Positions 3,592-25,705 of a stretch of 25,705 nucleotides of DNA are shown here, piece by piece (position 1 is the stretch's first letter; every line of letters begins with the position of its first letter). The notes under the pieces are model-generated. The model ran no database searches. It was not told the DNA's origin and worked only from the letters and a program-made list of their open reading frames with translations. The stretch lies in the IMG/VR virus record IMGVR_UViG_3300025848_000174, positions 1-25,705 of that record. One strand, given 5' to 3'. The stretch is from a virus (lineage: Duplodnaviria; Caudoviricetes). The position numbers were made by a program, and so were the translations under genes.

Positions 3592-3599
3592 TAAATTTG
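3592..3599 (+). promoter_or_regulatory. Bacteroidota-type -7 promoter element (TAAATTTG)
   Basis: Consensus match upstream of the structured leader of the primase-helicase gene. Confidence 0.65.
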
Positions 3600-3684
3600 C
3601 ACCCAACATACATTTACATACATAGCCCATTTGTAATTGCAGCCAAATGGTGCTACCGATAAAGGGTTCATTCTCTAACCCCTG

Positions 3685-3718
3685 CCCCGGCTGCTGCAAT
3701 CAGTCGGGGTTTTTTTTT
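3685..3718 (+). terminator. Intrinsic terminator/attenuator in the primase leader
   Basis: Stem CCCCGGCTG/CAGTCGGGG followed by 9 T, ending 8 nt before the ATG at 3727. Confidence 0.75.
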
Positions 3719-3726
3719 CTTATCCT

Positions 3727-5961
3727 ATGGCAGAAATATCAATGTTCAAAGCGTCCACCAATGGCGGTGTGCGAAACAATGTTCCCGAAGACCATATGCC
3801 GTTTGTGCAGTACATTCAGGACATAAAAGACGGCATCTACTACACGGAGGTCATGGCCTACCGCAAAGCCAAGACCGAAGAAACCAAACGGAGGCTTTCA
3901 GCCGTAACTCCTTCCGGCAAGTTCAAGAAGCAAGGAAAGGAAGGCCTCGAAACGCATTCCGGTATCATCTGCATCGACATCGATGCCAAGGACAACGATG
4001 GTATTGACGTACTTGCAATCCGCCAGGACGAACACCTCTACGCATTACACCAAAGCACCGGGGGCCAAGGCTATGCAGCCTACTACCGCATCGAGCCGGA
4101 CCGACACCTGGACGCTTTCTTTGCTTTGGAGAAACGCCTGGCAGACCGTTATCACATCATAATTGACCCGGCTTGCAAGGACGTAAGCCGTTTGCGGTTC
4201 GTCAGTTTTGACCCGGACGCATTCATCACCGACAAACCCGTTCCAGTATTTAAGACCTACCTACCCAAGGCCAAGGCTGCACCAGCCCCAAAGTTCTACC
4301 CACACGGTGAACACGATGTTGAACATATCCTCCAACAAATCGAAGCCAAGCGGATTGACCTGACGGATTCCTATGCCGATTGGGTCAAGATTGGCTTTGC
4401 CATTGCAAGCAAATACCACGAGCCAGGTGCGGACCTGTTCCATCGGGTTTCAGCACTATCCCCGAAGTATAACCCGGAAGCCTGCGACCGCAAGTACAAG
4501 CAACTCTGCAACTCCAAGCAGAACCAAGTGACCTTTGCTTCGTTCATGTGGCTTGCCAAGAATGCAGGGGTCGAGATTCAAACCAAGACCACTAAGCACA
4601 TCGTTTCCACAACCAAGTCCCACCGCATGCGTGTCGGGACCAATGGCGGTCCCAAGGACATCAACGCGGCAACGGAAGCAGCGGTCCGGGTACTTCGGGA
4701 GATAGACAACATCGACATAGATGGCCTTGAAGAAATCGTCGCCAACACGATGGCTCTTGATACAACGGAACTAAAGTCCGCTGATACCGAAGACACACCG
4801 ATAAAGCAAATAAAGGCTTTCTTGCGTTCATTCGACCTAAAACGCAATGCCGTAACCCGTTGTATTGAATACAAAGGCCAACCCATTACCGACGTGGACC
4901 TGAACAACATTTACGTTGACTGCCTCGAAGCCTTTGGCAAGAAGGAGGTCAGCATGCAACTCGTTGGGGCCATCGTGGATTCGGACTTTACACCGACTTA
5001 CAATCCATTTACCCAATTCTTTGCCCGGCACGGCCATCGCAATCCTACCGGGTGCATCGAAGCCCTGACCAATACCATCCGAACAACCAACCAGGACCAC
5101 ACGTTTGTGCAACTCTGCATCCATAAATGGCTCTGCTCGGTCATCGCAAGTATGCACGGGGAATACTCGCTCTCTATACTGGTCCTTTGTGGCGACCAAG
5201 GCATCGGAAAGACCAACTTCTTTCGTAACCTCCTGCCCGATGAACTTCGGGCCTATTACGGGGAATCCAAACTGGATGCCGGGAAGGACGATGAAATTCT
5301 CATGTGCAAAAAGATTATCCTCTGCGACGACGAGTTCGGTGGCAAATCCAAGCAGGAAGCCAAGAAACTCAAGGAACTATCCTCCAAGCAGACATTCAGC
5401 ATCCGCAAGCCCTACGGTCGGGTCCATGAGGAACTGAATCGGTATGCGGTCCTTTGCGGTACAAGCAACGACGAGGAAGTCATCAACGACCCAACGGGCA
5501 ACCGTAGGATTCTGCCTATTGTAATCAGCGAGATTGACTGGGATGCCTATGCAGCCGTCGATAAGACCGACCTGTTTATTGAGGCCCTACATTCCTACAA
5601 ATTAAACGGAGCCGATGCCTGGCAACTTTCCAAGGCTGAAATCAAGATGCTGAACAATCACACCATGCACAACGTGCAGCCGGCTATCGAGAAAGAAATG
5701 CTCCTGAACCTGTTCACCATCCCGTTGGACTATAGCGACCCCTACGGCAAGTGGATGAGCAATACCGAAATCAAGGACCTCATTGAAACTTGCACCAAGC
5801 AGCACATCAGTTCGCACAAACTTGGAGCGGTCCTAAAGTCCCTTGGCTGTAAGAAAATGACACGTCGGGAGCGGAATTTTCTTCCGTGCTACTTTTTGGT
5901 GAAAAATGCCGATAAAAGTGACTACGCCCAAAAGGTTGATAATAAGCGATATCCGTTTTAG
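3727..5961 (+). CDS. Primase-helicase (BT4734/VirE-N, PriCT-2 and VirE-like P-loop ATPase domains)
   Basis: N-terminal SGIICIDID and DPACKDVSRLRFVSFDP; PriCT-2-like YADWVKIGFA; Walker A GDQGIGKT; DPTGNRR. Confidence 0.88.
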   Translation: MAEISMFKASTNGGVRNNVPEDHMPFVQYIQDIKDGIYYTEVMAYRKAKTEETKRRLSAVTPSGKFKKQGKEGLETHSGIICIDIDAKDNDGIDVLAIRQDEHLYALHQSTGGQGYAAYYRIEPDRHLDAFFALEKRLADRYHIIIDPACKDVSRLRFVSFDPDAFITDKPVPVFKTYLPKAKAAPAPKFYPHGEHDVEHILQQIEAKRIDLTDSYADWVKIGFAIASKYHEPGADLFHRVSALSPKYNPEACDRKYKQLCNSKQNQVTFASFMWLAKNAGVEIQTKTTKHIVSTTKSHRMRVGTNGGPKDINAATEAAVRVLREIDNIDIDGLEEIVANTMALDTTELKSADTEDTPIKQIKAFLRSFDLKRNAVTRCIEYKGQPITDVDLNNIYVDCLEAFGKKEVSMQLVGAIVDSDFTPTYNPFTQFFARHGHRNPTGCIEALTNTIRTTNQDHTFVQLCIHKWLCSVIASMHGEYSLSILVLCGDQGIGKTNFFRNLLPDELRAYYGESKLDAGKDDEILMCKKIILCDDEFGGKSKQEAKKLKELSSKQTFSIRKPYGRVHEELNRYAVLCGTSNDEEVINDPTGNRRILPIVISEIDWDAYAAVDKTDLFIEALHSYKLNGADAWQLSKAEIKMLNNHTMHNVQPAIEKEMLLNLFTIPLDYSDPYGKWMSNTEIKDLIETCTKQHISSHKLGAVLKSLGCKKMTRRERNFLPCYFLVKNADKSDYAQKVDNKRYPF

Positions 5962-6164
5962 TGTAGTCACTTAGTCACTTAAAATGCGTTTTTTCTTTAG
6001 GGGCTTATATGTGCATGTGTGTGTGTGTGTGTGTGTGTATAATATATACTCTAAAGAAAATAGTAACTAAAGTAACTACAGTGACTACAACCCCCTTGAC
6101 GCTATCAAAAACGCAGATTTTGGTAGTCACTTCACTCAAATTCAAAGTAACTACAAGTGACCAC
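5917..6164. repeat. Putative replication origin with nine AGT(G/A)ACTAC-type iterons in both orientations
   Basis: Copies start at 5917, 5963(rc), 5972(rc), 6062, 6071, 6080, 6123(rc), 6146 and 6156; inverted repeat 5991-6000/6051-6060; AT-rich; directly after the primase-helicase gene. Confidence 0.7.
6017..6038. repeat. (GT)11 microsatellite
   Basis: Read directly from the sequence. Confidence 0.95.
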
Positions 6165-8579: not shown

Positions 8580-8622
8580 AGACCATTTCGTTGACACCAC
8601 CAAAATGCTAAACCCCAACCCC

Positions 8623-8775
8623 ATGAAAACCACACCAACCGATTTCCGACGCTGGCAACTCCACATTCGCAAGGAGTGCGTCAACTGCAACCGACCCGAT
8701 AAATCCGAAACCATCAAGGCTTGGTCCGTCAACTGGACCCTGCTCGGTCGCATCCTCCAAGCCAAAAACGCTTAG
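8623..8775 (+). CDS. Hypothetical protein (CxxC)
   Basis: 50 aa (MKTTPTDFRRWQ...), with an AAACCCCAACCCC-ATG context. Confidence 0.6.
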   Translation: MKTTPTDFRRWQLHIRKECVNCNRPDKSETIKAWSVNWTLLGRILQAKNA

Positions 8776-11762: not shown

Positions 11763-12958
11763 TGCCGGTAAAAGAGCAGGAGAAGTTCATCCGAACCACG
11801 GCCGTAAATAAGGTCCGTGAGTTAAAGCGGTTCGTCAAAGGGGTACAAGGCGGCTCGTCCGCATCCAAGACGTACTCTATCCTTGCCGTTGAGATTGACC
11901 ATTGCACCAAGAACCCGTACACGGAAACAAGCGTTGTAGCCGAGTCCATCCCACACCTGAAACGTGGGGCCATGAGGGACTTCATGAAGATTATGACCGT
12001 TACTGGGCGATTCAATGCTGCCCGATGGAACGCCACCGACTTTCGGTACAAGTTCGCCAACGGCTCATACATTGAGTTCTTTTCGGCTGACGATGATTCC
12101 AAGTTAAGGGGTGCAAGGAGGGACAGGCTCTACATGAACGAGGCCAACAACCTATCCTTCCACGCTTACACGGAACTGGCAGCACGGACCAAGCAATCGG
12201 TTATCCTTGACTGGAACCCGGTCAACGAGTTTTGGTTTCACTCCGAACTGATGCAAGACGAGGACGTGGACTTCCTCATTCTAACCTACAAGGACAACGA
12301 AGCCTGCCCCAAGAGTGCGAGGGACTTCATCGAGAAAGCACGGGTCAAGGCCGAAACTTCGGAGTATTGGGCGAACTGGTACAAGGTCTATGGCCTCGGT
12401 CAGGTCGGGATGCTTCAGGGGGCCATCTACGAGGACTTCGAGGTCGTGGAGGGTATCGATGTCAGCCGAGCGAAATTCGTCGCCCTTGGGCTTGACTGGG
12501 GCTTTAGCAACGACCCAACGGCCTTGGTTGCTATCTACCGCCAAGGGGACTGCCTGCTCATTCAGGAACTGCTCTACGCTACGGGCCTGACCAACCAAGA
12601 CATCGCAGACAAACTGCGGTCGCTGGGGATTACAAGGGCTTGGGAAATCGTGGCGGATTCAGCCGAACCGAAGAGCATCGAAGAAATCTACCGACTTGGC
12701 TTCAACATCAAGCCAGCGGAGAAAGGCCCCGACTCGGTTCGGAACGGCATAGACATCCTCAAGCGGTTCAAATTGCAGGTTACCAAGGATAGCACAAACC
12801 TCATCAAGGAACTGCGCTCCTACACATGGGCGACGGACAAAGAAGGCAAGAACACGGGGGTTCCGATTGATTCCTTCAACCACGCCTGCGATGCGATGCG
12901 GTATGTGGCACTCAACAAGTTACGGGTCAGTAACTCAGGGAAGTATGTTGTGGTTTAA
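11762..12958 (+). CDS. terL: Terminase large subunit (PBSX/SPP1-like)
   Basis: Walker A QGGSSASKT, Walker B LYMNEA, and nuclease motifs GLDWGFSNDPTA, DSAEP and NHACDAMRY. Confidence 0.95.
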   Translation: MPVKEQEKFIRTTAVNKVRELKRFVKGVQGGSSASKTYSILAVEIDHCTKNPYTETSVVAESIPHLKRGAMRDFMKIMTVTGRFNAARWNATDFRYKFANGSYIEFFSADDDSKLRGARRDRLYMNEANNLSFHAYTELAARTKQSVILDWNPVNEFWFHSELMQDEDVDFLILTYKDNEACPKSARDFIEKARVKAETSEYWANWYKVYGLGQVGMLQGAIYEDFEVVEGIDVSRAKFVALGLDWGFSNDPTALVAIYRQGDCLLIQELLYATGLTNQDIADKLRSLGITRAWEIVADSAEPKSIEEIYRLGFNIKPAEKGPDSVRNGIDILKRFKLQVTKDSTNLIKELRSYTWATDKEGKNTGVPIDSFNHACDAMRYVALNKLRVSNSGKYVVV

Positions 12959-12963
12959 CTTTG
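12956..12963 (+). promoter_or_regulatory. Bacteroidota-type -7 element (TAACTTTG) heading the glycosylation cluster
   Basis: Consensus match 4 nt before the ATG at 12968. Confidence 0.55.
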
Positions 12964-12967
12964 AGGC

Positions 12968-13069
12968 ATGAACCCCGAACGCATCCTTGACCTGCTAATC
13001 GAAATCGGCAAGACGGTTGCAGCCGTTTTCTTCATCCTCACCCTTCTAACCCTCCTTTGGGCCTTATGA
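12968..13069 (+). CDS. Small membrane peptide (33 aa)
   Basis: MNPERILDLLIEIGKTVAAVFFILTLLTLLWAL; ATGA-coupled to the next gene; not listed in the ORF track. Confidence 0.55.
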   Translation: MNPERILDLLIEIGKTVAAVFFILTLLTLLWAL

Positions 13070-16208: not shown

Positions 16209-16216
16209 TATATTTG
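16209..16216 (+). promoter_or_regulatory. Bacteroidota-type -7 element (TATATTTG) for the tRNA-like RNA
   Basis: Consensus match 4 nt upstream of the acceptor stem. Confidence 0.65.
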
Positions 16217-16220
16217 CATT

Positions 16221-16380
16221 AGTCAGGTGGCGGAATGACGGTACAAAGAGTAATGGTATGTGCCTGATACGGTAGACGCTACGAGTTGGATTTAGGTCTC
16301 AAACATTCCCGTTCGAGTCGGGCATAGTGGGCCAACTAGGAGAAACTAAGACCATACAGGTTCGAATCCTGTCCTGACTA
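16221..16380 (+). ncRNA. Expanded tRNA-like RNA (160 nt) with a Leu-type D-arm
   Basis: Acceptor stem AGTCAGG/CCTGACT; T-arm ACAGG-TTCGAAT-CCTGT; TGGCGGAATG...GGTAGACGC D-arm interrupted by an insert; non-canonical anticodon region. Confidence 0.75.
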
Positions 16381-16398: not shown

Positions 16399-16406
16399 AC
16401 ATTTAC
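16399..16406 (+). promoter_or_regulatory. Putative late promoter element ACATTTAC
   Basis: 4 nt upstream of the ATG at 16411, as at two other operon starts. Confidence 0.5.
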
Positions 16407-16410
16407 CCGT

Positions 16411-17058
16411 ATGGAAACAACCATACTTGCGAATGGCCAACCCGTAGGTAAGTTCGGTAGCGGTTCGATGAAGGGTATCGACCAAACCGCCTTGGAGGGC
16501 ATTGGTTCAATCGTAGGTCCCAAGGGTGGAGGCAAGTCCCCAGCCCATGATGTCTTGGTCAAGTGGATTGAACGGGTCATCGAACTTGCGAAGAAGAACC
16601 TCGAAGCAGCGAACGCAAATGCAGGGGGAACGCTATCCGCATCCATCGCCCCCGAAGACATCGAACTATCGGCAAAGCAAATCGTCGTGGCTATCATGGC
16701 CAACCCCTATTGGAAGTATGTTGACCAAGGGGTGCGAGGCAAAACGTCAAGCGTAAAGGCTCCGAGGTCGCCATTCCAATACAGGGACAAGTTCCCACCC
16801 GCTCAAGCCATGGCTGATTGGATAGCCAACAAGGAAAAAGCAGTTGTGCCAACCTATTCCCGTGAACTCAAGCGGATGCGGACGAAGCAGGAGCAGGGAT
16901 TGGTCGATGGCAGGTCGGTAGCCTATTGGGTATTCCAGCGAGGAACACGGGCCACGAACTTCATGTCTAACGCCCTATCCCCCGAAATGATAGACGTTTT
17001 GGTGAACACAATCGCTGAAACCCTTGGCAAACCCATAAGCGTAGCAACCAAACTATAA
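16411..17058 (+). CDS. Putative tail completion/neck protein (HK97 gp10-like)
   Basis: GGTLSASI, YWKYVDQGVRG and GTRATNFM pattern; basic protein. Confidence 0.6.
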   Translation: METTILANGQPVGKFGSGSMKGIDQTALEGIGSIVGPKGGGKSPAHDVLVKWIERVIELAKKNLEAANANAGGTLSASIAPEDIELSAKQIVVAIMANPYWKYVDQGVRGKTSSVKAPRSPFQYRDKFPPAQAMADWIANKEKAVVPTYSRELKRMRTKQEQGLVDGRSVAYWVFQRGTRATNFMSNALSPEMIDVLVNTIAETLGKPISVATKL

Positions 17059-21983: not shown

Positions 21984-21992
21984 GACATTTAC
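21964..21992 (+). promoter_or_regulatory. Putative late promoter TTGCA-N16-ACATTTAC
   Basis: Same motif and spacing as the lysis-unit promoter; 4 nt before the ATG at 21997. Confidence 0.55.
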
Positions 21993-21996
21993 CACT

Positions 21997-22596
21997 ATGG
22001 AACTACCCATTTACAGGATGACCGTGGACGAGGTGGATGAAGGGGTGCAATTCGTGGCCCTGACCGATATGCCAGCCATCGAGCGACCATTCCAAGCCTT
22101 TGCAAAAGCCAAGCAGCGATTCACCGAAACAGGCGAACGCAGGGTCCTGACTGGGCCTCTCATGCTTGCAGATACCCCTATCTTCCGCAAGGACGAAACC
22201 TATGGCGAGTACTACGTCGTGTTTGACAAAGCGACCATCCGCAAAATCGTGCAGAAGTACTTTAAGCAGGGCAACCAGCATAACGTCAACGCCTACCACA
22301 ACGCAGAACTGGATGGGGTGTTTATGTTCGAGTCATTTATAACCGACTCCGAGCGTGGTATCATGCCACCGAAAGGATACGAGGATACACCCGACGGCTC
22401 TTGGTTCGGCTCCTTCAAGGTTGAGAACGACGAAGTGTGGGACAACCGCAACCTGTTCCGGGGTTTCTCCGTTGAGGGCCTGTTCGGAATGGATAAAACT
22501 GAATCCGAACTGGAGGTCGCACTCGCTGGCCTTGCCGATGAACTTACCGCTTTTTTGCAACAATTAACCCCCACCTACAAATCCAATCAACTATGA
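21997..22596 (+). CDS. Prohead serine protease (XkdF-like)
   Basis: VALTDMPAIE, LTGPLMLAD, NAYH, GSWFGSFKV and RGFSVEG; upstream of the scaffold and capsid genes. Confidence 0.82.
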   Translation: MELPIYRMTVDEVDEGVQFVALTDMPAIERPFQAFAKAKQRFTETGERRVLTGPLMLADTPIFRKDETYGEYYVVFDKATIRKIVQKYFKQGNQHNVNAYHNAELDGVFMFESFITDSERGIMPPKGYEDTPDGSWFGSFKVENDEVWDNRNLFRGFSVEGLFGMDKTESELEVALAGLADELTAFLQQLTPTYKSNQL

Positions 22597-23213
22597 ACCT
22601 AAAAAACGCAATCGAATCCCTGCGGACTGAACTCCGCAAATTCAGCACCCAAAAGCAGTCCTTCGCTGACTACAAGTTGACCGATGGCACGGTTGTCCGT
22701 GTTGACGGGGACCTCGTTGCCGGGACTGCCGTTTACGTCGTTGCCGAAGATGGCACACTTCCTGCACCCGATGGCGAACACGTCGTTGAGGGAGTTGGAA
22801 CAATCAAGACCGAAGGAGGCAAAATCGTTGAGGTCATCGCTGCCGAAGTACCAGTCGCTGCCCAAGAGGTTGAGATTGAAGTGGCTCCCGAAGAACCCGA
22901 AGCCCCCGAAATGCCCGAAGCCCCAATCGCTATGACTCCTGATATGGTCGAGGCCATCGTCGCCAAGCATCTTTCCGCTATCATGGAAGAACTCAAAGCA
23001 GCCTACGCTGAAATGGGAAAGATGAAGGAGAAAATGTCTGCATTCGCATCGCAGGTTGAAACGATGGCCGACATCGTTGAAAAGGTCAGCGAACTCCCAG
23101 CCGAAGCCCCCAAGGCAAGCGGTTCCGCAATCGTTGAGCAACGCAAGGCCCAAGCATCGCAGAACTTCAACGCACTCGCACAAGCACTCCAATCACTCAA
23201 ATCCAAAAACTAA
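22593..23213 (+). CDS. Putative capsid scaffolding protein
   Basis: Acidic, with APDGEH and a coiled-coil C-terminus; between the protease and capsid genes. Confidence 0.7.
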   Translation: MNLKNAIESLRTELRKFSTQKQSFADYKLTDGTVVRVDGDLVAGTAVYVVAEDGTLPAPDGEHVVEGVGTIKTEGGKIVEVIAAEVPVAAQEVEIEVAPEEPEAPEMPEAPIAMTPDMVEAIVAKHLSAIMEELKAAYAEMGKMKEKMSAFASQVETMADIVEKVSELPAEAPKASGSAIVEQRKAQASQNFNALAQALQSLKSKN

Positions 23214-23234
23214 ACCCCTAAACCCCCACTAACC

Positions 23235-24155
23235 ATGGCATTTACTTTTGCAGGATTAACCTCCTACACCGACCAAGAGAGGCTTCCTCTCATCACCAAA
23301 GCGGTATTTTCCGCTCGCTCTGCGTCTTTGTTCACCAAGCAGGTGGGCATCAAGTTCGCTGCTGCCCTCAACCTCATGGACACCGATGCAGTTCTGCAAG
23401 GCGGCGACCTTTGCGGTTACACAAGTTCAGGCACGACTGCGTTCACCCAGCGTAACATCACCGTTGGTCGTATGAAAGTGCAAGAAACCCTGTGTCCTCG
23501 TTCCTTGGAGCAATACTGGATGCAGACCCAGTTGACTGCTGGCTCTACCTACGATGGCGTTCCTTTCGAGCAGGCTTTCTCCGAGCAGAAGGCTCTCCGT
23601 ATCGCTGAGGCTTTGGAGAATGCAATTTGGCAGGGTAACGCTTACTTCAGCGGTATCAACCAACTTTTGAACGCTGCTTCGGGTTCTACCATCAGCGGTA
23701 ACACAGGTGCGGTTTCTGCGTCCGTTGGTATCACCGCATCGAATGTCATCGGCATCTTTGACGCTATCTACAACCAAATCCCACAGGCCATCCTGACCCG
23801 CAACGACCTCGTCATCTTCTGCGGGTGGAACAACTTCCGTACCTTGATTGGTGCTTTCAAAGCCTCTACAGGCGTTATGTACAACCAAGTTGACTTGGCT
23901 GGACTTGCTGACGGGGACATCATCTACCCCGGCACAAACGTCCGTGTAATCGCAGTTCCCGGCTTGACCAACACGAACCGCATCGTTGCGACCTACCTCG
24001 GCAACCTGTTCTACGGAACCGACTTGTTGAGCGACGAGGAGCAGTTCTCAATCTGGTTCAGCAAAGACAACGACGAAGTCCGCTTCCAAGCAGCCTTCAA
24101 AGCAGGTGTCCAGTTCGCTTATCCCGACCTGATTGTAGACTTCCGCTTGACCTAA
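23235..24155 (+). CDS. Major capsid protein
   Basis: 306 aa after the protease and scaffold; IAEALENAIWQG backbone-helix-like motif; strong codon bias; followed by a terminator. Confidence 0.82.
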   Translation: MAFTFAGLTSYTDQERLPLITKAVFSARSASLFTKQVGIKFAAALNLMDTDAVLQGGDLCGYTSSGTTAFTQRNITVGRMKVQETLCPRSLEQYWMQTQLTAGSTYDGVPFEQAFSEQKALRIAEALENAIWQGNAYFSGINQLLNAASGSTISGNTGAVSASVGITASNVIGIFDAIYNQIPQAILTRNDLVIFCGWNNFRTLIGAFKASTGVMYNQVDLAGLADGDIIYPGTNVRVIAVPGLTNTNRIVATYLGNLFYGTDLLSDEEQFSIWFSKDNDEVRFQAAFKAGVQFAYPDLIVDFRLT

Positions 24156-24162
24156 TGTGTAG

Positions 24163-24190
24163 GGGGGAGGGAAACCTCCCCCTGCTTTTT
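24163..24190 (+). terminator. Intrinsic terminator after the capsid gene
   Basis: GGGGGAGG-GAAA-CCTCCCCC stem-loop followed by TGCTTTTT. Confidence 0.8.
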
Positions 24191-24221
24191 GTTCCTTGAA
24201 ACTTAAAACCCAAATACACAT

Positions 24222-24749
24222 ATGTCCTGCTCCTTAACAACTGGCTACGCCCTCGGCTGCCGTGATTCCGTAGGTGGAATCAAAACAATTTACGTCCAAG
24301 GCTGGAATGCTACGGGAACCGTTAACACCAATGGCTCCGGTACTGTTACAGGCTTCACAGGTTTCTCTTCGGGTTTCTACGAGTACGACTTGACCAAGGC
24401 TACGTCATCTTTGACTGAAACCTTAAACGCAAGCATTGAGAACGGCTCGATTTACTACACCCCTGAGGTTACCTTTACCATCAACAAACTGCAAGTCGCA
24501 GTCCGCAACGAACTCCGTCTGCTTGCTCGCAACCGCTTGCTGGTCATCGTCCAAGACAACAACAACCGCTATTGGGTGTTGGGTGCTGCTAACGGCCTTG
24601 AGGCAACTGCTGGAACCGCTGGAACTGGTACTGCCTTCGGAGACCGAAATGGCTACGAAATGACGCTGACAGGGATGGAACCCGACCCAATGCTTTTGAT
24701 TGCGTCAACAACTTTTACACCGTTGGCAACACAAATAGCAGGCTCGTAG
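24222..24749 (+). CDS. Putative major tail (tube) protein
   Basis: 175 aa, T/G-rich; CRDSVGGIKTIY and DRNGYEMTLTGMEP; follows the capsid gene. Confidence 0.65.
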   Translation: MSCSLTTGYALGCRDSVGGIKTIYVQGWNATGTVNTNGSGTVTGFTGFSSGFYEYDLTKATSSLTETLNASIENGSIYYTPEVTFTINKLQVAVRNELRLLARNRLLVIVQDNNNRYWVLGAANGLEATAGTAGTGTAFGDRNGYEMTLTGMEPDPMLLIASTTFTPLATQIAGS

Positions 24750-24759
24750 TACATTCGCA

Positions 24760-24820
24760 TCAGGTTTTCATCATCTGAGGTTTGGGAGGGCAGTCAGTAA
24801 TGGCTGCCCTTCTTATTTTT
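24760..24820 (+). ncRNA. Candidate antisense sRNA ending in an intrinsic terminator
   Basis: Preceded by TACATTCG (near-consensus -7 element); 24762-24786 is complementary to early-gene start regions. Confidence 0.4.
24787..24820 (+). terminator. Intrinsic terminator
   Basis: AGGGCAGTCA-GTAA-TGGCTGCCCT stem-loop followed by TCTTATTTTT. Confidence 0.75.
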
Positions 24821-24826
24821 ACGGCC

Positions 24827-25705
24827 ATGAAGATTTGCATCGTTTACAACGCTCACCCAACGGGTTGCAGTTTCTATCGCCTTGAAATGCCGAACGCTTA
24901 CCTTGGCGACAACTACCCGGAGTTCGATTACGTCTGCGTGGAAAATATCACGACCATCAGCGATGAAGGACTCAAGTCCATTGACCTCTTCCTGTTCAGC
25001 CGGCTTTGGTGTCAGGGAACCATGGAGCAGGTTGAGAATGTTTATAAAGCCCTGACGCAATACGGAGCGAAAATCATCCTTGACTTGGACGATTATTGGG
25101 TCCTTGAATCGGGCCACATCATGTACCGCCACTATCACCAAACCAAACTTGCAGACGTGATTCGCAAGCACATCAAATTGGCTGATTGGGTTACCTGTAC
25201 CACCGAACACCTTGCTGCCCGCATACGGCCTCTAAATGCGAATGTGAGCATTTTGCAGAATGAACCCTACGAGGCGTATCAGCAATTCATCCCCAACCCC
25301 GAAGAAGAACCCGACAAGCACCTCGTCAAGTTCGGTTGGTTCGGTGGGGCGCAGCACGGGGAGGATATGGAACTGCTCCGGGAATCTATGCAGCAGTTGA
25401 GGTGGGACGCAAACTTGGATGGCAAATACCGCCTCTATCTCGGAGGCTGGAACGACAACAACCCCGTGTACGAGGGCTACGAAAAGATAATCAGCGACCA
25501 AGGGAACAACCCGAACTATGGCCGAATCCAAGCAGCGGATATTTACTCCTACGTGGGGGGTTACAACTTCGTGAACGCTACCCTTGCACCTTTGCGAGAT
25601 ACCAAGTTCAACAAACTCAAGTCCGAGTTGAAGGTGGTCGAGGCAGGGTGGATGAACAAGGCCATCATCGCATCCGAAACCATCCCCTACACCGATGTAA
25701 TCAAG
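24827..25705 (+). CDS. GT-B fold glycosyltransferase (3' end truncated by the window edge)
   Basis: Open frame MKICIVYNAHPTGCSFYRL...ILDLDDYW...ADWVTCTT...FGWFGG...LAPLRDTKFNKLKSELKVVEAG; not listed in the ORF track. Confidence 0.82.
   Translation, partial: MKICIVYNAHPTGCSFYRLEMPNAYLGDNYPEFDYVCVENITTISDEGLKSIDLFLFSRLWCQGTMEQVENVYKALTQYGAKIILDLDDYWVLESGHIMYRHYHQTKLADVIRKHIKLADWVTCTTEHLAARIRPLNANVSILQNEPYEAYQQFIPNPEEEPDKHLVKFGWFGGAQHGEDMELLRESMQQLRWDANLDGKYRLYLGGWNDNNPVYEGYEKIISDQGNNPNYGRIQAADIYSYVGGYNFVNATLAPLRDTKFNKLKSELKVVEAGWMNKAIIASETIPYTDVIK

Follow-up and report, generated by a model that had tools for sequence, protein, structure and literature searches.

Near the end of the window—the whole stretch of DNA analysed here, a single virus record of 25,705 bases and 52% G+C (IMGVR_UViG_3300025848_000174) with lysis, early, replication, packaging, and structural modules—a tail-tube-like gene is followed by a compact unit made up of a Bacteroidota-type promoter, a 22-nt segment predicted to be single-stranded, and a strong terminator. 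The features of this locus are the following:

24222–24749, + strand: tail-tube-like gene (phrog_19091, function unknown), directly 5′ of the element and after a capsid-like gene
24750–24757, + strand: variant TACATTCG of the sigma-A −7 box, immediately after the tube-gene stop codon
24762–24820, + strand: predicted small RNA of ~59 nt, running from the inferred +1, where sequence invariance begins, to the U tract
24762–24771, + strand: 5′ module AGGTTTTCAT, complementary to AUG and the following codons, present in 38/38 clade-A loci
24776–24783, + strand: 3′ module, complementary to the early-leader motif AAACCTCA, invariant in 38/38 clade-A loci
24784–24820, + strand: intrinsic terminator, a 13-pair stem (24784–24813) plus U tract
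24827–24836, + strand: start of the next gene, encoding a glycosyltransferase (phrog_7162), a possible cis partner of the 5′ module when transcription reads through

We infer the label of the tail-tube-like gene from its position and from weak fold matches: its AlphaFold model has a pLDDT of 69.6, and its Foldseek rows are mostly tail-tube-type folds, none of them at E ≤ 0.001. As for the host, we infer a member of the Bacteroidota from the TAnnTTTG boxes, the leaders devoid of Shine–Dalgarno (SD) sequences, the annotated relatives—in the phage collection, solely the Nonlabens phages P12024S/L (four records, 32–33% identity)—and the titles of the genome-collection matches, which name Bacteroidota in five of six cases. 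Bacteroidota start regions have been described as lacking SD sequences and being tuned through upstream adenines (PMC6847099). Complete relatives have genomes of 30–37 kb, and one of them (G014) looks lytic, with no Pfam match to an integrase, repressor, or antirepressor in the 43 of its 48 called genes that were scanned (genes <50 aa were excluded). A distant relative, G045, is classed as a provirus.

The −7 box of Flavobacterium promoters, with the consensus TAnnTTTG, occupies positions −12 to −5 (PMC9723704); on this spacing, the +1 of the unit is predicted at 24762, the first base of a 25-mer (24762–24786) highlighted by the first-pass annotation. Promoters of this type fall outside the coverage of the sigma-70 promoter scan. 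The box is perfect in 8/38 clade-A and 39/39 clade-B loci, and variation is found at position 7 and both N positions of the box and in the 4-nt spacer. The terminator folds with a z of about −4.4 against shuffles, and the first 22 bases from the +1 are unpaired in the centroid fold of the short, promoter-driven RNA, whereas in the longer 3′ end of the tube mRNA the seed is predicted to be hairpinned with upstream bases. Thus, of the two forms originally put forward, an RNA of about 60 nt or the 3′ end of the tube mRNA, the folds favour the former, as an independent RNA of ~59 nt, in clade A. The unit combines the sequence-level hallmarks of a trans-encoded sRNA, its own promoter and an intrinsic terminator in non-coding DNA, with a second, computed one: a conserved, accessible seed predicted to pair imperfectly, over short stretches, with several distant mRNAs.

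No Rfam family matched the window at its gathering score, three weak unrelated matches being found in 23000–25705 (E 1.5–7.1), and ARAGORN reported nothing for the element. In lake metatranscriptomes of long RNA, 24 runs contained a small share of the region, and contigs of seven distinct runs covered the capsid and tube genes of relatives. One run provided a single low-depth contig from 24744 into the next gene, a type of assembled contig that cannot show start, strand, or level; the other six had little or no contig cover over the element, which, for assembled contigs, counts neither way.

Conservation of the unit was followed in the best 80 IMG/VR loci, 77 of which were usable (38 of clade A and 39 of clade B). 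Within clade A, both modules are invariant (38/38 each) and the linker between them occurs in two forms (26 and 12 loci); 0/12 columns vary at +1 to +12, compared to 6/12 in the promoter and spacer. The seed is also more conserved than the adjacent third codon positions at the end of the tube gene, 19/29 of which vary. Clade-B phages, with 88% tube identity to clade A, carry a different seed, and their 3′ module (invariant in 39/39) corresponds to the ACCACTAAACC leader of the first gene in these same phages; gene 1459 of the window bears both the A motif and the B motif. Across 17 genomes of clades A–C, the clade motif occurs in antisense exactly once per genome. Several clade-B phages have identical 12 bases in the promoter of the RNA and the early promoter, and one pair of the clade-B hairpin is changed on both sides in 7/23 sequences, a weak support for the hairpin.

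The first-pass annotation had aligned the reverse complement of the 25-mer in register with the start region of the annealing-protein gene sak (1831–1855), and all of these coordinates check. The early promoter and the predicted targets are listed here:

1420–1427, + strand: early promoter −7 box TACCTTTG, a pattern match found at the same place in relatives
1446–1465, + strand: start region of the first early gene (ATG 1459), −11.3 kcal/mol, rank 4/41, leader unstructured
1691–1710, + strand: start region of the second early gene (ATG 1704), −11.9 kcal/mol, rank 3/41
1831–1855, + strand: start region of the Sak/Rad52-like annealing protein gene, the best target, −14.5 kcal/mol, rank 1/41, 18 pairs
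8608–8631, + strand: start region of a 50-codon gene (ATG 8623), −13.1 kcal/mol, rank 2/41

These ranks derive from accessibility-corrected energies over 41 hand-set starts, one of which (7554) is mis-set. The four best partners coincide with the starts pointed out by the first-pass annotation and are all non-structural, with the fifth-best start at −8.7 kcal/mol and the ten listed late genes between 0 and −5.8. An earlier run with automatic starts placed the targets at ranks 1–3 of 40, with 0/40 shuffles per gene. Raw duplex energies over all ATGs, computed without accessibility, gave noise (sak at rank 4/847) and were replaced. The computed duplexes with 1845, 8623, 1704, and 1459 are bipartite, the 5′ module pairing with ATGAAAA of sak and with ATGAAAACC at 8623; the latter is a real start, as proposed, since the orthologue in a relative starts at the same Met. 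For sak itself (1845–2483; Pfam Rad52_Rad22, E = 6.9e-5, better than the curated cut-off), the alignment holds while the original count of 10 bp plus 7 bp does not, because G24784 and G24785 belong to the terminator stem and the computed duplex is 8 + 7 + 3. Similarly, the distance of 23 kb given for sak is that of the linear record; on the circular map the early targets, which lie on the same strand as the element, are ~9.6 kb away (early promoter at +9552 in G002).

Five copies of AAACCTCA are found on the + strand (1446, 1691, 1833, 1850, and 12796), of which the first three precede ATG 1459, 1704, and 1845—those at 1446 and 1691 bearing out the earlier report of the pattern before these two genes—and the copy at 1850 is inside sak. 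The only copy on the − strand is the one in the element. The predicted pairing also exceeds the shuffled and A/C-rich controls that the first-pass annotation had proposed: 2/216 dinucleotide shuffles of the segment reach its top-three mean over the 41 starts, 0/216 reach its mean score on the first three early genes, and 0/150 A/C-rich target shuffles, with composition and AUG kept, reach the score. Contiguous match alone gives a modest signal in the clade-A window genome (p = 0.025).

Co-variation of the RNA and the early start motifs in related phages, also suggested in the first-pass annotation as a check, is present across lineages. The diversity of tube proteins was drawn from five viral scans and one genome scan, and 47 contigs were analysed with a purpose-made gene caller, which missed some first early genes (G020 was left out, its stretch ending at the tube gene); the segment from the tube stop, or the +1, to the terminator was scored against 200 shuffles. 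In 26/47 contigs, the segment beats its shuffles at the starts of its own genome (p ≤ 0.05), and 21/47 give no signal at the tube site, several of these being fragments without an early region. Among 23 lineages, with one representative each chosen by gene count, the mean z is 1.37 for the own genome and 0.44 for foreign ones (permutation p = 0.00035), whereas the sense-orientation control yields a null mean z of 0.05. In AT-rich phages, such shuffle tests are inflated by low-complexity U/G repeats. Contiguous matching is not specific to the own genome in clade A, whose representative G002 ranks it 4/23, and nine lineages place theirs at rank 10 or worse. By energy, the clade-A RNA reaches −12.9 to −13.6 at clade-A early starts versus −5.4 to −10.3 elsewhere.

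The top-three targets fall within the first six early genes in 23/33 cases for clades A–C (4.8 expected), 16/45 for elements at a second site described below (5.3 expected), and 13/51 for other tube segments (6.3 expected). In clade F, the segment is an exact complement, over 12–14 nt, of ACGCT-ATG-AAA starts in 4/5 genomes; in these same four, the gene of the ERF annealing protein gives one of the four longest matches. The cultured Nonlabens phage P12024S shows a 13-nt match to one of its own starts. Among distinct tube segments, 9/37 contain T[TC]CAT (2.5 expected, p = 0.001) and only 4/37 contain an internal promoter. The clade-D tube segment fits best the gene after the terminase, not an early gene, which counts against the early-gene reading; an 11-nt complement to the start of this gene is seen in two clade-D genomes (L209:13445-14104 in G025 and L211:18199-18384 in G026), and the gene matched differs between genomes. 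Two further cases concern the tube locus itself. G041 (L186:8875-9500) and G037 (L177:10001-10650) have tube proteins 94% identical and unrelated segments, the segment type and early region of G041 being those of clade C, despite 56% tube identity; linkage with the downstream block may explain this mismatch. Two tube-gene copies with different downstream segments are found in G052 (C1:2969-3460 and 36626-37120), which may be a chimeric assembly.

A first control, in which 23 tube terminator leaders were compared to 41 other terminator leaders, did not separate the two sets (p = 0.20), because many lineages carry the same kind of unit before the early promoter. These second-site units lie at the end of the late region, ~90–330 nt before the first early gene, and often have their own promoter box. 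Among plus-strand non-coding leaders of 33 genomes, z ≥ 2 is reached by 18/33 tube, 1/14 capsid, and 15/70 other terminator leaders, compared to 18/217 coding leaders, in a tally of uncorrected z from 30 shuffles where the second site was picked after seeing the scores, and from which minus-strand self-matches and one plus-strand self-match (G045) were excluded. As read, 14/15 of the positive other terminators are at the late–early boundary, G033 being the least clear. At least one element, at the tube or the second site, is present in 27/33 genomes, and 6/33 have it at neither site; G002 and P12024S are among these six, yet both are positive in the 200-shuffle test. Several tube-negative lineages are positive at the second site, and in G046, G047, and G057 both sites are occupied with the same anti-motif. 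The unit thus relocates while keeping its seed logic, which speaks for a function residing in the RNA and not in its location.

Other parts of the window deserve mention in their own right. The annealing-protein gene (1845–2483) is exchanged in place among close relatives (L089, L090); the protein at this position in G004 and G014 matches over its C-terminal half only (54–65%), and G004 retains the clade-A leader. Between early genes 1 and 2, a conserved 30-nt element (1650–1680) persists in clades A and B despite exchange of the flanking first gene, and is possibly a processing or recombination signal. Immediately before the primase gene, a box TAAATTTG, ~100 nt of intergenic sequence, and a terminator (3592–3725, alike in relatives; leader z 1.6 against start regions) form a candidate attenuator or second non-coding RNA. 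The primase–helicase gap (5955–6160) resembles a replication origin in having a (TG)n run, an AT-rich stretch, and several GTAACTA/GTCACT units. At 16209–16360, a perfect box TATATTTG after a stop codon precedes a tRNA-like sequence with long insertions, for which ARAGORN and Rfam report nothing and which is possibly a non-canonical tRNA-like RNA. Finally, some genes are apparently leaderless: TAACTTTG stands four bases 5′ of ATG 12968 (12956–12970), and an ACATTTA box, a candidate late promoter, is found just 5′ of ATG 16411 and 21997 (16400–16413 and 21986–21999), conserved in relatives.

Comparative sequence analysis indicates that the element is real, conserved, and co-evolving with the early starts. 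The interpretation proposed here, with a probability of about 0.68, is that 24762–24820 encodes an antisense RNA of ~59 nt, which would act in trans by pairing with the early starts of its own phage and blocking their translation. Host sigma-A polymerase would start at 24762 and end at the terminator, and the RNA would accumulate during infection because of its host-type promoter and protected 3′ end. In genes 1459, 1704, sak, and 8623, the AUG and the leader motif ahead of it would be occupied by the two modules, so that ribosomes would be unable to load at these unstructured, A/C-rich, SD-less starts. Once accumulated, the RNA would cap the output of early and recombination genes, acting as a timer toward the late phase. 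Where relatives lack an internal promoter, the 3′ end of the tube mRNA, which would be made late, would supply this seed. With regard to timing, some late genes have the ACATTTA-type box, whereas the sRNA unit has a host-type box like the early promoter, which favours production of the RNA from early on. The first-pass annotation is supported in its candidate RNA directed against early starts, while a strictly late switch is not established, since the promoter is of the host type.

Among the alternatives, one retains the RNA and changes its main job to the silencing of early genes of co-infecting related phages, with self-repression as a side effect. Exclusion of this type would fit the host-type promoter, which permits expression from the start of infection, the presence of both A and B motifs in gene 1459, and the prediction that clade-B and clade-C RNAs reach clade-A early starts (window genome and G004) with ~−12 to −14 kcal/mol, near the resident RNA; C4 RNA has been reported to act in such a way (PMC5320573). 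However, the reverse does not hold, as the clade-A RNA is weak on clade-B and clade-C starts (−7 to −10), most RNAs fit their own lineage best in the cross table, and nothing points to a lysogen in need of protection, given the lack of integrase or repressor matches in the 43/48 genes of G014. Exclusion as the main function is accordingly regarded as improbable, although the wider claim that the RNA acts on phage early starts, be they its own or those of a co-infecting relative, can be held with appreciably more assurance than self-repression by itself.

It has also to be considered that the segment encodes no regulatory RNA, being instead a minus-strand gene (a relic or a real start), an inverted DNA-binding site, or a U/G-rich spacer. 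The segment does read as a leader plus ATG on the minus strand, clades A and B have a real minus-strand unit with a similar leader before the early promoter, and the first terminator control was negative (p = 0.20). Nevertheless, the minus-strand frames span 2–45 codons without a common length, and the start of a minus-strand gene, the outcome that the first-pass annotation had set against its own proposal, is here reduced to a frame of 3–4 codons. Moreover, a minus-strand promoter adjoins 1/43 elements, an inverted gene since deleted would have left its ATG on the other side of the terminator, only the antisense orientation gives a match (sense control z 0.05), the capsid leaders are null (1/14), and the seed is conserved beyond the neighbouring third codon positions, which makes this explanation quite unlikely.

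A purely cis-acting role, where fold-back of read-through RNA would insulate the gene downstream (in the case of the second site, the first early gene) from translation, draws on the 10 pairs formed by the 5′ module and the glycosyltransferase start in the predicted fold of 24762–24870, on the location of second-site elements ~90–330 nt before the first early gene, and on the 8–9-nt match of the clade-D tube segment to the leader of its next gene. It is very improbable, since the pairing with the next gene is not conserved, the leaders matched by the 3′ module are ~10 kb distant and do not include that of the next gene, matches to distant genes reach 12–16 nt, and an anti-early seed is kept in clades B and C, although the next gene there starts differently and has its own promoter. 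Equally hard to sustain is a shut-off of host mRNAs with A/C-rich AUG-AAA starts, whose style the phage leaders would copy: the SD-less, adenine-tuned starts of Bacteroidota (PMC6847099), the generic anti-AUGAAAA module, which would fit host mRNAs too, and the almost equal fit of the clade-A segment to starts of other phages by contiguous length speak in its favour, but the lineage-private ACGCT-ATG and AAACCTCA motifs are few per genome and located at own non-structural starts, and even between relatives as close as 88% tube identity the seeds differ, each following the leaders of its own phage.

Returning to the antisense RNA against the phage's own early starts, a more general proposal can be advanced tentatively, at somewhat less than even odds: a very large family of aquatic, apparently lytic Bacteroidota siphoviruses may use, as an RNA analogue of T4 RegB/RegA, a minimal and relocatable "anti-start" RNA, made up of a seed and a terminator and expressed from its own promoter or as the 3′ end of the tube mRNA, that closes the early and recombination programme and sets exclusion groups, driving the start motifs of each lineage. 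In such a scenario, the exclusion groups among co-infecting phages would arise from the cross-reaction of seeds among relatives. The family is estimated at ~6,500 IMG/VR stretches. If true, the mechanism would provide a simple early shut-off for small lytic phages in which neither a repressor nor an early-mRNA nuclease is obvious, especially in hosts that do without Shine–Dalgarno pairing, would explain the repeated leaders common to early genes, and might represent a natural design for gene silencing in Bacteroidota. It also offers a general search rule, namely to look for a terminator preceded by a single antisense copy of the start motif. No description of the element was found among the open-access titles and abstracts searched; two surveys, one with 10,006 candidate viral RNAs (PMC10690425) and one with six phage non-coding RNAs (PMC5335546), may list such hairpins. 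The existence of a cultured member, Nonlabens phage P12024S, makes the claim directly testable.

Several phage antisense RNAs, such as sar from P22, OOP from lambda, aQ, and STnc6030 from BTP1, are cis-encoded. The cis-encoded class, as exemplified by sar, OOP, and aQ, was considered for the element and discarded, the predicted targets of the element being ~9.6 kb off on the circle and on the same strand. Like the element in its proposed role, these four RNAs lower phage gene expression, and some of them act in superinfection exclusion (PMC12197685); they have a single target, whereas here several imperfect targets are predicted ~10 kb away. A joint shut-down of early mRNAs through a common feature of their starts is also known from the RegB nuclease and RegA repressor of T4, which are, however, proteins, and RegB requires the GGAG SD motif, absent from the phage mRNAs here (PMC3014915). 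The start-associated sequence (SAS) of cluster K mycobacteriophages, with another host and another sequence, shares the arrangement of a motif at non-structural starts plus one unexplained inverted copy, and its authors left an RNA or a protein partner open (PMC3203893). In Anaya, the single inverted SAS copy (L358:31871-31883) matches at 12/13 positions and lies in non-coding DNA close to the right end of the genome. It sits in a GC-rich fold, no clear terminator is seen over the 120 nt inspected, and the copy is a possible antisense RNA.

A close parallel is C4 RNA from P1/P7, which has been described as using two short seeds, one occluding the ribosome-binding site and the other, upstream, conferring specificity (PMC5320573). 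A bipartite seed over the start and the upstream region, and the co-variation of seed and target between related phages, are found in both (PMC5320573). The differences are nonetheless clear. The three-stem fold of C4 is absent here, where a single hairpin is present and no Rfam match was obtained; the element has its own predicted promoter, while C4 is processed by RNase P; its predicted targets are several early genes, including that of the annealing protein, in place of the antirepressor unit; and its setting is a host without SD sequences and a phage whose relative G014 gave no match to temperate-immunity genes. By this comparison, the element would resemble C4 RNA in the way it works, without being a member of the C4 family.
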